Source: Octopus vulgaris (lineage: Eukaryota). Taken from it: 64,000 nucleotides of DNA. A program made the translations under genes and the position numbers. The stretch lies in the NCBI GenBank assembly GCA_951406725.2, contig OX597814.1, positions 65,410,001-65,474,000 of the forward strand, in the 5' to 3' direction. The notes under the pieces were generated by a model, which had not been told where the DNA came from, ran no database searches, and was given only the letters and a program-made list of their open reading frames with translations. Positions 1 to 40,500 of this stretch are shown one piece after another. How positions within the stretch are numbered: the first letter of the stretch is position 1; each line of letters starts with the position of its first letter.

Positions 1-431
1 CTAAATGCAACAGTAACACCCCCACCACCCTGCCCTGTCCCTAGCCATATTCAGATGGCTTTAGTCCCTTATGATATCGAGCAGTTACTGTCTATATCTC
101 TTTTAGAGAATTATTATTGCTTTCGAACAGATTTTCGAAATCAGCAAATGTATTTTGCTTGAAAATCTATATATGAATATCCTGCAGAGTGAGAGTTCGT
201 CGAGGAAGCGGAAGCCTACCACACGCCGACGATAGGCAATACACCTTGAAACCATGGTCCGTGTGTGGTTTCCGCTTCATCGGGGAATTACCTCCCTTTG
301 CAGGATAAGGACACCGTGACGGTGTCGAGCCTTTCTGGTGACGTCGATGTTCGCCTGGGGCTAAATGCAACAGTAACACCCCCACCACCCTGCCCTGTCC
401 CTAGCCATATTCAGATGGCTTTAGTCCCTTA

Positions 432-437
<6 letters not shown>
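1..437 (+). repeat. 360-bp tandem repeat unit (one full unit plus 77 bp; probably continues left of the window), retrozyme-like
   Basis: Bases 1-77 are identical to 361-437, giving a period of 360 bp. The repeat ends abruptly in (TA)n and the unit contains a hammerhead ribozyme fold. Confidence 0.85.
196..288 (+). ncRNA. Type I hammerhead ribozyme (variant core)
   Basis: Stem I CACACG(220-225)/CGTGTG(260-265); core CCGACGA(226-232); stem II AGG/CCT around loop CAATACA; GAAA(248-251); palindromic stem III ACCATGGT(251-258); GTC cleavage triplet(257-259). Distal stem I GAAGCGGAAGCC(205-216)/GGTTTCCGCTTC(267-278). It deviates from consensus at U4->C and a U-U at the base of stem II. Confidence 0.75.
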
Positions 438-8748: not shown

Positions 8749-9159
8749 TCTATATGTATGTGAGCGATAAGTATCGTGTGGTGGAAATAAACGCAACTTT
8801 CTCATTCTATATTTTTTGTTAAGTTAGAATTTGTCTGTTTTGGTCAGGATTTTTTCAATTTCTGTTTTCTTGTGTCGACCAATTGACGAAAGAATTTTTA
8901 AAAAATTAAATTCATTGAGCCGAACAAAGTCAAAATTATATTAATTCTATTTTTTCCCTTTACTTTTTACTTTTCTACAATATAGTTAATTACCACACCC
9001 TATATACTGAGATGGGAGCGATGACCTCCCCTCCAAAACACTAATAGGACACAGAATGTGTGTCATTATCTAGCTGGAGGAGATGTCTTCCTGGGGCTAT
9101 AAACGACAGTAGCACTGTCCTGTATAGAACGCCACACATGATTAGCAACATATGTTACG

Positions 9160-9225
<66 letters not shown>

Positions 9226-32129: not shown

Positions 32130-33030
32130 AAAACCGAAACATTCATATAAGGACTCTTACGCGAATTGTTAAAAAGGATCACAAAAGTACAGCCCCCAAA
32201 TTTACTGCAGAGCTTAATGACCACCTCGAGAAACCAGTTTCTACAAAAACTGTTCGCCAGGAGCTGCACAAAGCCGGATTTCACGGGAGGGTTGCAATCA
32301 GAAAACCACTACATTCAAAAACAAACCTTGCAAAGAGTTTAGAGTGGAGTAAAAACCTACAGAATTGGTCCCTAGAGCAGGGGAAAATGGTATTTTCCCG
32401 GACGAGTCATCCTTTACCTTAATTCCGACCACAGGCCAAGTGTACGTGTGGAGACAGACAAAAGAAGCATTTGAGCCAGACTGCATTTTTTCCAACTGTT
32501 AAACATGGAGAAGGATCAGTGATGATTGGGGGGAGGGGCTATATCATGGAAACCCGCCGGCCCCTTCATGGCAGAATTAATATTCAAGACTATTTAAGCA
32601 TTTTATCTGATCAAATTCATCCTATGGTTGCGAAGTTGTTTCTTGAAGGAAACGCAATCTTTCAAGGTTATAATGCACCAATTCACACAGCTAAAATTGT
32701 TACTAAATGGCACAAGAAACATTCTTGTGAGATTGACCATCTTATCTGGCCACCAGAGTCCCCAGATCTCAATATTTTCGAACATTTATGGTGCATTCTA
32801 GAAAAAACAAGTAAGGAGTCGATATCCACCACATATATCATCACTACAAGAACTGCAGACTGTTGTAACTGAAGAATGGACAAAACTTCCTTTGGAAACA
32901 ATTAAAACTTTGTACGAGTCCATACCTCGTAGAATTGAAGCTGTAATTACTGCCAAAGGCGGTCCTACCCCATATTAAAATAAATTTGTTTGAAATTTTA
33001 AGGCGTTTCCCTTATTTTGTCCAGCCCCTG
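32130..33030 (+). mobile_element. Tc1-like transposon, 5'-truncated, frameshifted transposase
   Basis: RTLTRIVKKD..VSTKTVRQELHKAGFHGRVAIRKPL, DES, PTVKHGEGSVMI, FQGYNAPIHTAK, WPPESPDLNIFEHLW, KGGPTPY*. The 3' TIR-like end is TTTTGTCCAGCCCCTG. Confidence 0.92.
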
Positions 33031-37559: not shown

Positions 37560-40500
37560 ATATCACAATATTAAAAATCAATTAAACCCAAACTACATTA
37601 GCCACAGACGATATAACAATCCTCAGTACAACCATAATCGAGTACACTACACAACCACTCCACCACAAACATACTACCATAGACACAATTTACATCCACC
37701 TTTCTCTCGTCAAACCAAACAAAATACAGACCTTCCACGACAATCCATGTACTACAACCATTTTTAGACGCAAACCAGAGAAACAGAGATGTGAAATGGA
37801 AACAAATAAACAAGTCCAACCGAACATAATCAACCTGTCAAAGAAAATCCTGAGTTCTACACAAATCAAAATCCTAGCAAGAGGTCTAAAATTTACCCCT
37901 ACCCCACGCAGACCGAACCCAAATGAAATTAAGGACAATACTTTGGACTTCTGCCATAAATTACGCCTCACAGAAGCTCTTTACAACTTTACCAGTGAAG
38001 ATGACTCAATAGTGAAAAACAAAAGTGAGTACCATCCTACAAATGGTAGAAATAAAGCACTTGATGTTTTCTGTGATCACATAACTTGCTTTCCTTACAA
38101 TACCATTCCAAAGCAACATATCAAATCCAACCTTAATTTAAACGAATGGAAAGACCTTGTCGAGCTAAACAATGACATAAACCTCACTATTAAAGAAGCC
38201 GACAAAGGAAGTGCGGTAGTATTGATGGATACAGAGTACTACAAAAATGTAATACTTTCCATGTTACTTACTATGAAAAACTAACATATTACAACCCACA
38301 GAAAACACTGAAAAATTTATCCCCCCTACTCCAAACTCATGGAAAGGGTCTTACAACACATGAAATTGACTATCTATCTAATTTCAAATACAGTCCTAGT
38401 CAATTCTACGGATTACCCAAGATACATAAAAATCCACTCATTTGTGAAGCCTGGAAAGTCTCTACAAGCCTATGCATTAATGTCCCTCCACCTACTGACC
38501 TCAAACTCAGACCCATCATAGCTGGCCCTTCCTGCGAAACCCACCGTTTGAGTAACTTTCTTGACATATTACTCAAACCTCTTTTAAAATATGTGAAAAG
38601 CTATATCAGGGATGACCTAGACATGCTGAACCACCTCCCGAAGACAGTAAAGGACGGAACTCTACTGGTGTCTTTCGATGTGGTGAATCTATACATTAAT
38701 ATCCCACACGACTATGGTATAGAAGCAATCACATTTTGGCTAGAAAAGCACCCAGAAGAGATCCCAGGTCGAATTAACCACAATTTTATAATTGAAGCAC
38801 TGAAATTCGTCCTGTTGAACAGTCATCTCTTGTTCGATACTACTTACTATCGACAGGAATGCGGAATTGCAATGGGGACCAGAGCTGCTCCAGTGATTGC
38901 AAACCTCGTAATGGGTTACCACGAACTTAAGTTATACCAATCATCACTTGAAAAATATGGCGCCTCTTTCAATTACTACTTAAAGGAGAACTGGAAGAAA
39001 TATTTAGATGATTGCTTCATTCTTTGGCCAGATAGCATGGATCAACTCCTTGATTTTAAAAGAATGCTCAACAACATACACAGCAATATACAATTCACTA
39101 TGGAACATAACAGTAAGCAACTACCTTTTCTAGACATCTTAATTAGAATAGTTAACAACCACATAGAAAAAGACATCTTTTATAAACCCACAGACTCCAA
39201 ACAATACCTATTATTTAACCCCTGCCACCCCAAACATATAAAAATCAACATACCTTTTAACCTAGCAAAAACAATCTGCACCATAGTTTCCGATACATAC
39301 ACTCGGGAACATAGACTCCTTGAACTTAGATCTACACAAAAACGAAAAGACACTACCCAATCTCATAAGTAAATGAAGGCATCAAAAGAGCTAAGGGAAT
39401 AGATATACAAAGATTAAGGAAAACTAGCCGAAATACTAAACAAGACTTAAAAATACTCCCGTACATCTCCACACATAACCCCAGAAACAACGAAGCTTTC
39501 AACATCATCACCCAAAACCTCCCCATCCTCACAGCAGGCAAAACAATGAACGAAATTTTAAGCTCATATAAAATTATAAAAAGCAAAAAGCAACCGAAGT
39601 CACTGAAAAGAATACTAACCAACGCTAGACTTTACCCACCAACTACTGAGCAAAAAGTGACAAAATGTGGACGTTCTAACTGTGGAACATGCCCCCACCT
39701 TCTGGAGGGTTCAGAATTCCAATTCAAACAAGGAGAAATATTTAAGATCAAATCAAATTTCACCTGCGCCTCAGCAAATGTAATGACATGCACAGGATGT
39801 GGTAAACTCTATATTGGACAAACAGGAATTTCGCTCCGTCAAAGAATCACCATTCACAAAGAGCAAATCCGTCACCCACAATACAGACAGTTCAAGGTGA
39901 GTGAACACATAGAAAGATGTGCCAGGAATCTTAATCCCAATTTCCAAATATTTCCCTTTTACCAATGCTCACAGAACACCACAATGCAACAAAGGTTGAA
40001 TAAAGAGTCATTTTTCATCAACAAATTTCTCCCCCAATTAAATATGAACACACAACTCAATACAGAACACCACTAACTCTTCAATTTAAACCACTAAACC
40101 CTATACACTTTCTACATCACTCACATCTCTAATTCCACAACTACTTACCTCCCTTACATATAATCCCTTACAAATAATCTCTTTTCTCAGGAACTATTAG
40201 ACCTGACACCGTTTATTAACCGGTGTTGTTCAAACGATGAATAGCCCACGCGCAAGCCAATTGGTTCGTTTCAGTCTCTTACTTTATTATTATTATTATT
40301 AACTTCTTATAATCATCTCAGAACAATGACCTTTATGACTCGTATTACTACCTCAATCAATCTAAATGTATATATTTGTCACTACCTGTCATATATAGCC
40401 TTTTTCTATCTGCAATATGCATTTTCATTGATTTTTCATATTTTACCCTTACATTTCCACGTGTATTTTATATTTTCTTTTCGTAACATATTTCTACAAT
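37560..40500 (+). mobile_element. Penelope-like retroelement (Neptune-type architecture), near full length
   Basis: An A/C-rich element bounded by (TA)n tracts on both sides, carrying the disrupted RT-GIY-YIG ORF below. Confidence 0.9.
37796..40076 (+). pseudogene. Penelope-like RT plus GIY-YIG endonuclease ORF broken by several frameshifts (segments 37796-38284, 38548-39372, 39546-40076)
   Basis: IINLSKK.L..L.RGLKFTP, IKEADKGSAVV, FYGLPKIHK (intermediate frame), SFDVVNLY, GIAMGTRAAP, YLDDCF, IQFTME, LPFLD, YKPTD..HP. A Cys linker KCGRSNCGTC is followed by TC..NV..CTGCGKLYIGQTG..R..H. Confidence 0.93.

Follow-up and report, generated by a model that had tools for sequence, protein, structure and literature searches.

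A young, probable 360-bp hammerhead retrozyme of Octopus vulgaris with the insertion footprint of Penelope-like elements

The stretch of Octopus vulgaris DNA analyzed here (64 kb of contig OX597814.1, termed the window) opens with 437 nucleotides in which an initial annotation saw a candidate retrozyme, i.e., a non-coding tandem unit of 360 nt expected to give rise to a small circular RNA. The locus raises the question of how such a unit enters the genome, and which form of its RNA is then copied into DNA. Retrozymes as a kind of element, the rolling-circle model and a link to Penelope-like elements (PLEs) are already published (PMC7229834 and PMC7761336, in their accessible parts; 10.64898/2026.07.22.740005). 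The mechanism of mobilization is still called unresolved (10.64898/2026.07.22.740005), and the accessible part of a 2020 review states that animal retrozyme repeats have no conserved motif pointing to a helper element (PMC7761336). New here is the insertion footprint, which provides unusually direct evidence on this open mechanistic question; searches of the open-access literature listed no paper on this family, nor any in which inserted retrozymes have inverted arms and PLE tails. In the reading that we prefer, and to which we assign a probability of roughly 60%, the element is a young 360-bp hammerhead retrozyme, the circularized unit RNA of which is copied round and round by a PLE reverse transcriptase.

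The insertion and its ribozyme

Parsed unit by unit, positions 1-437 of the window (plus strand) turned out to belong to a retrozyme insertion with a single arm, of which they form the right half. The exact 77-bp recurrence at period 360 noted earlier was located at 1-77 and 361-437. Leftward extension, which had been proposed as a way of counting units, gave a whole insertion of 853 bp with 2.4 units in one arm (G000:C1:65409585-65410437). Its left end, at unit position 305, precedes the window by 416 bp; its right end, at unit position 77, is the short end. The insertion is immediately flanked by (TA)n on either side, and the short 3' end (433-437, plus strand) merges into the (TA)n target at 433-466, with the last ~4 bases of the 77-bp repeat blending with the target. 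Two complete type I hammerheads are present, 360 nt apart (G000:C1:65409888 and 65410248), which is enough for release of one monomer. Both internal unit junctions carry an A at unit position 74; an exact genome-wide search with the stretch containing this variant (62-84, plus strand) gave two matches in the 2.8-Gb assembly, both in the 853-bp insertion. The family's 3' ends are fixed at 77 and 121, and the 44-nt "tail" between them (78-121, plus strand) is internal here and terminal in tailed arms.

No credible open reading frame had been seen in the unit, and this agrees with the doubled unit, in which the longest stop-free stretch is 90 codons and the longest Met-started one 50. Reverse transcriptase (RT) and GIY-YIG reading frames were absent from the 853-bp insertion, which is thus not an autonomous PLE.

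The type I hammerhead lies at 220-265 on the plus strand, as supported by the sequence, a descriptor match and covariation. Helix I is formed by 220-225/260-265, the core at 226-232 has a C3-G8 pair and a C at position 4, helix II (234-236/244-246) has a U.U at its base, and helix III (251-252/257-258) is closed by a palindromic loop; the predicted cut is after C259. In line with the one hammerhead per unit claimed initially, 220-265 was the sole descriptor match in the 64-kb window. Rfam is blind to it, reporting no hammerhead for the unit at the gathering score or at E<=10. Our initial descriptor was blind to U3-A8 cores, and a relaxed version detects a hammerhead in PLE family 2. The descriptor scan gave no hammerhead on the minus strand, so that ribozymes are not found in both polarities. 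The hammerhead is atypical in having both the C at core position 4 and the U.U under helix II. A C at this core position is tolerated in some natural hammerheads.

The linear unit folds better than shuffled sequences (z -6.1; 0/100 shuffles as good), and the proposed comparison of the circular 360-mer with shuffled controls likewise gave z -6.1 (40 shuffles). The long rod into which the ribozyme was said to extend was recovered by folding at 178-307 (plus strand), with the hammerhead at its tip; region 170-315 had z -8.9, and none of 200 shuffles was as good. Most of the fold signal comes from this rod, the remainder of the unit alone having z -2.7 with a cruder shuffle. The ribozyme core is masked in the best fold of the circular monomer, and the active fold is 8.8 kcal/mol costlier. 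Circular plus-strand folds of four families had z values from -4.2 to -6.1, and the minus-strand fold was weaker in three of the four.

All stems named in the initial annotation were found at their coordinates, with TTTCGAA/TTCGAAA missing from the minimum-energy folds. The GGGCTAA/TTAGTCC stem is in place in the unit, but its 3' side is not conserved in sister families, where a helix of 11-17 with 84-90 is conserved instead. This helix was paired in 111/112 cells (16 units, four families) and is mostly invariant; it closes around the short start site (73-77), a hairpin at 43-60 and a stretch rich in AC, and together with these it makes up a region (11-90, plus strand, defined by covariation) that may serve as an enzyme-recognition element. 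At its foot the rod has a hairpin (310-326, plus strand) that is conserved and is, by arm ends and covariation, the first-pass hot spot of 5' arm ends.

The element at 1-437 fits a non-LTR retrozyme by every DNA-level feature examined, including a period within the ~150-450 bp of such units. The retrozyme reading of the initial annotation thus holds for the tandem multi-copy units, the hammerhead, the lack of coding capacity and the strong self-pairing, and its cleavage and circle part is a prediction.

A dispersed family with a PLE-type footprint

The exact hammerhead motif had 1,391 matches genome-wide and the exact 3' motif 2,354, with 0 for each reversed control. A single-copy unit, which would have spoken against a retrozyme, is hereby contradicted. 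As the first 100 matches of the 3' motif corresponded to 33 loci, the copy number extrapolates to ~800 insertions. In the 138 parsed loci 1.8% of aligned bases deviate from the column majority. The family is young and dispersed, with hundreds of near-identical insertions, and its low divergence means that it is young enough for the footprint to survive.

We identified three sister families of 352-361 bp, two of which had 490 and 147 exact matches; unit lengths across families keep no reading frame. Eight helices had 99.3% of cells paired (16 units, four families). The core pair 3-8 was CG in six of the 16 units, UG in five and UA in five, and U3-A8 is a described PLE hammerhead variant (PMC4209133, accessible part). 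All four families have a palindromic helix III in their typical unit, with the palindrome broken in 2/5 family C units; the accessible part of the same source links a palindromic helix III to dimer-dependent cleavage (PMC4209133). The commonest change within the core was at the free position 7. Since related sequences can beat a shuffle control without structure, the 3-8 swap and the changing palindromes outweigh the pairing score, and from these compensatory changes the ribozyme appears to be under selection.

Two apparent leads were set aside during the survey. A longer element suggested by a 1.38-kb period at C1:94.32 Mb was a duplication with flank included, and a minimal hammerhead next to a relative in L030 probably belongs to a repeat of its own. 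A degenerate short sister-retrozyme copy, resembling the 3' half of family D, lies at 9010-9160 of the window (plus strand) and ends in (TA)n. At L100:2090-3277 a family D retrozyme adjoins a truncated family 2 PLE in a common (TA)n target. Two of the longest insertions (L296 and L297) lie 20 kb apart at G000:C2:57.27 Mb and 57.29 Mb and differ in haplotype.

In the 33 loci sampled by the 3' motif, 54/56 arm ends were located at 65-77 or 117-122, 44 of them exactly at 77 or 121, and TA follows 50 of the 54, showing an AT-rich microsatellite target. The family thus has variable 5' ends and two fixed 3' ends, which are separated by 44 nt and lie at a distance from the ribozyme cut. Exact junctions of tail and TA numbered 444 genome-wide (control 0); of the 100 tail sites listed, 14 were left out of the parsed loci. 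Two diverging arms were present in 23/33 loci, and in the 138 loci all 89 complete two-arm insertions were inverted pairs in which one end was short and the other tailed; 50 of these 89 had been chosen without regard to a tail. The arms of a pair are mostly joined without a gap or with an overlap of a few bases.

For PLEs the tail has been traced in vitro to two internal start sites (PMC11167929), and the inverted-arm, tailed layout is described in the accessible part of 10.1101/2021.04.23.441226. Coding PLEs in the present genome were found to have the same short/tailed inverted layout. This suggests that the layout is the signature of PLE reverse transcription, and very probably the element is a retrozyme mobilized by PLE machinery. 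The footprint points to PLEs as the helper class and gives the target, the two start sites and the conserved RNA helix surrounding these sites.

Complex junctions were seen at L033:3513-3608, L151, L218, L230 and L240, one of them a palindrome with the haplotype of another subfamily, which suggests that templates were switched when the ends were joined. Two adjacent two-arm insertions are present in L240.

The template of reverse transcription

The arms of one insertion share their haplotype: only 22/1,649 comparisons at common polymorphic sites were mismatches, compared to 24% after shuffling. Arm lengths of pairs correlate (rho 0.70, n=66), with no correlation in 23 length-selected top matches, and in 18/66 pairs the template positions at which the two arms stop are no more than 25 nt apart (6.4 when permuted). 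The median arm is 385 nt and the longest 14.7 units or 5,304 nt; altogether, 179 arms pass the cut site 278 times. A 23-unit insertion had a single haplotype throughout, and at sites covered by at least three units a common variant was present in all units in 194/240 cases. Units nevertheless retain 123 private single changes, which shows that the assembly has not simply smoothed them.

Rare variants filling a whole array also bear on the template. Variant 203C had 13 matches genome-wide, all within one insertion and on both of its arms, and 332C and 234G each occurred in one other insertion only, which was shorter. For none of the four such variants searched (these three and the 74A of the 853-bp insertion) does the assembly contain a parent array of the same or greater length, which points to circles of unit length as the template in most cases. 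That parent arrays may be missing from this one assembly is the main loophole of the circle reading. We consider it probable that a circle is the usual template of long arms.

The arms stop at a nearly constant rate of ~1.4 per kb (counts exclude odd-ended arms and loci L197 and L240), and outside hot spots this rate was not higher after the first pass (59/40,758 versus 81/59,882). A barrier at 306-326 was strong in the first pass (24 stops versus 4.6 expected) and weak later (8 versus 5.3; P=0.001), the pattern to be expected of one and the same RNA that the first pass had unfolded; alternatively, the first-pass hot spot could reflect 5' ends of short linear RNAs. Around the cut, at 258-263, first-pass stops were at expectation (1 versus 1.0), whereas later-pass stops were enriched (5 versus 1.4 expected, P=0.013), suggesting that in some cases the template was a linear RNA, its 5' end made by the ribozyme. 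Indels were not in excess at the cut (9/2,898 versus 328/136,261).

The later-pass stops favor the alternative that PLEs copy linear, uncleaved or partly cleaved multimers, with long uniform arms stemming from uniform parents or from later DNA amplification or gene conversion, and with circles as dead ends. Unprocessed RNA was the main substrate of an anole PLE in vitro (PMC11167929), and in L224 and in L216 the two arms have the same ordered mosaic (5/86 same-offset comparisons), which means that these insertions were copied from a multimer. Mosaics are also seen in L032 and L297, and the arms of L020 are unlike in haplotype. As a general account, however, linear multimers are at odds with the parentless array-wide variants, with variants common to inverted arms and with a stop rate that stays flat after the first pass despite the short median arm. 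In addition, of 103 junctions only two matched another sampled locus, one being mis-parsed and the other self-complementary. We therefore regard linear multimers as an unlikely general template. The templates are rather taken to be mostly circles with a minority of linear multimers, and these multimers lend weak and indirect support to cleavage in vivo.

An enzyme that copies ribozyme-cut linear monomers, jumping precisely from one 5' end to the next 3' end, would also yield head-to-tail units of one haplotype from a single source locus, and the few stops at 258-263 fit. It is very improbable, since the first-pass run-off at 260 is not seen, the junction has no excess of indels, and a one-off RNA-level variant would not fill 13/13 units.

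Equally hard to uphold is a viroid-like replicon that multiplies from RNA to RNA and is only occasionally reverse-transcribed into the genome. Its size and rod-like fold are suitable, and variants unique in the genome imply changes at the RNA stage, but transcription errors or editing explain these as well, and the minus strand has no hammerhead and in most families the weaker fold. The term viroid-like, used initially, is better taken to mean a non-autonomous element mobilized by PLEs, as the insertions have a PLE footprint and nothing indicated RNA-to-RNA replication. That the hammerhead is dead or due to chance, and the unit simply a satellite or a terminal repeat belonging to a coding Penelope element nearby, agrees with the lack of an Rfam match and is already contradicted by dispersed young insertions with fixed ends, by (TA)n abutting both sides of the 853-bp copy and by the compensatory core changes, leaving it next to no credence.

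Among the rare array-wide variants 10/24 were A>G, compared to 8/145 among single-unit variants (Fisher P=1e-5), in a mutation spectrum that leaves out six messy loci. Array-wide A>G exceeded T>C by 10 to 4 (P=0.05), some events being non-independent. According to the accessible part of PMC5625713, ADAR targets mainly double-stranded RNA derived from repeats. The A>G excess is no more than suggestive of RNA editing written into DNA.

Rolling-circle copying by a PLE, the reading that we prefer, would proceed as follows. Read-through transcription of a copy with two hammerheads would give an RNA that is cut after C259, probably as a double hammerhead via the palindromic helix III, and host ligation would then produce a 360-nt circle with its core masked in the best fold; for both events we rely on the covariation and on published retrozymes. 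A PLE protein, presumably, would nick both (TA)n strands, with cDNA starting at unit positions 77 and 121 as seen in the footprint. Both cDNAs would be copied from one template haplotype and run past the cut site at ~1.4 stops per kb, as the arms do. Their ends would be joined bluntly or by microhomology to give the observed inverted pair, or one arm would be lost, as may have happened at the 853-bp insertion. A minority of insertions would come from linear multimers.

We are evenly divided on the full version of this model, in which the insertions record rolling-circle, twin-primed reverse transcription by a pair of PLE proteins on a single 360-nt ribozyme-made circle, for up to ~15 rounds onto both ends of a cut (TA)n, with RNA-stage changes (probably including A-to-I edits) in every unit. 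If true, a natural circular RNA would be a directly evidenced transposition intermediate in an animal germ line, and tandem arrays would arise at full length in one step. Small circular RNAs would then have a natural path into tandem arrays of DNA, and edits made in RNA might likewise become heritable changes in DNA. Whether the circle is the template can be asked directly in the in vitro assay already published for PLEs.

A search of sequencing runs found the stretch in 20 of the 24 rows listed, under six organism labels, none of them recorded as RNA. Contigs from four runs guessed to be RNA span the unit, and two show a joint of position 360 to position 1; a tandem array yields the same joint, and the flank of one such contig matches the genomic insertion L167, so that the joint was not counted as evidence of a circle. 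Contigs ending at 260 were likewise not taken as ribozyme ends, since a common variant at 230 explains them (31-mer bubble). The same four runs also span PLE family 3 from end to end.

Candidate helpers and related systems

About nine GIY-YIG PLE families were seen in the genome, and those with ends read finish in (TA)n. Most of them have the Neptune-type CxxC linker, a motif that the Naiad paper also describes. No homology of the unit to a coding PLE or its pLTR was found in the broken PLE of the window, a second family and 50 GIY-YIG loci (~nine families); the matches obtained were separate retrozyme insertions. The two protein searches scored 150 of 20,969 and 150 of 6,136 candidates, and the partner PLE may therefore be unseen.

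PLE family 3 has 15 copies at 98.9% identity with an intact frame of 781 codons, inverted arms, a 38-nt tail and a small hairpin loosely resembling that of the unit. This very young family is probably active, judging by its sequence, and by age it is the best helper candidate, a tentative choice more apt to be wrong than right. In PLE family 4 the hammerhead shares C4 and U.U with that of the unit, and the 3' region is different. The family 3 copies (L281-L295, e.g., G000:C16:20833001-20841500) have a terminal repeat of ~1 kb with repeated TGACGTC, CCAAT-like boxes and a TATA-like box.

In the accessible parts of PMC7229834, the metazoan non-LTR retrozymes of coral, mussel and axolotl resemble the present unit in being tandem, non-coding and a few hundred bp long (350-390 bp in mussel), in having one type I hammerhead per unit and G+C near or under 50%, and in their strong self-pairing. 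The axolotl Amex2 ribozyme shares a 2-bp helix III with a tetraloop and the U.U at the helix II base. This likeness is by description and not by sequence, and the same parts say nothing of internal ends at fixed positions, of a tail, of arms in inverted orientation or of insertion into (TA)n. They report core masking only for some mussel circles, whereas here the core is masked in the best circular fold, and they document circles by northern blot, whereas the present family is known from DNA alone.

Retrozymes have been interpreted as non-autonomous PLE derivatives (10.64898/2026.07.22.740005), and the octopus family is alike in co-occurring with Neptune-like PLEs and in ranging from monomers to multimers. 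That study drew the PLE link from co-distribution and pLTR homology and offered local tandem amplification for array growth. In contrast, no homologous pLTR was found here, and each array is itself a PLE-type insertion product.

Poseidon from Anolis, an EN+ PLE, is similar in its two adjacent internal start sites giving a tail and in its AT-rich targets (PMC11167929). According to that study and the accessible part of 10.1101/2021.04.23.441226, EN+ PLEs also extend both strands, leave an inverted 5'-truncated arm, and have a hammerhead upstream of the start sites and an AC-rich stem-loop near the start. Unlike these elements, the unit has no open reading frame, is 360 bp rather than kilobases long, has a tail of 44 nt rather than 30-40, and reaches 14.7 units per arm. 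With hammerhead viroids and plant LTR retrozymes, as described in the accessible part of PMC7761336, it shares a small structured RNA and a hammerhead masked in the monomer. It differs in a hammerhead of type I rather than type III, in one polarity, in having no apparent LTR/PBS/PPT layout and in its PLE-type integration route.

Hammerheads of PLE type elsewhere (L081, L256/L262, L261, L305/L318 and L245) often had U3-A8 or C4 and a minimal palindromic helix III. The window itself contains a broken Neptune-like PLE at 37560-40500 (plus strand), with RT and GIY-YIG in three frames, sitting in (TA)n. It belongs to an older family with many relatives and has no homology to the retrozyme unit. Two decayed DNA-transposon remnants lie at 2050-2790 and 32423-32872 of the window, which by their motifs we take to be Tigger/pogo-like and Tc1-like, respectively.
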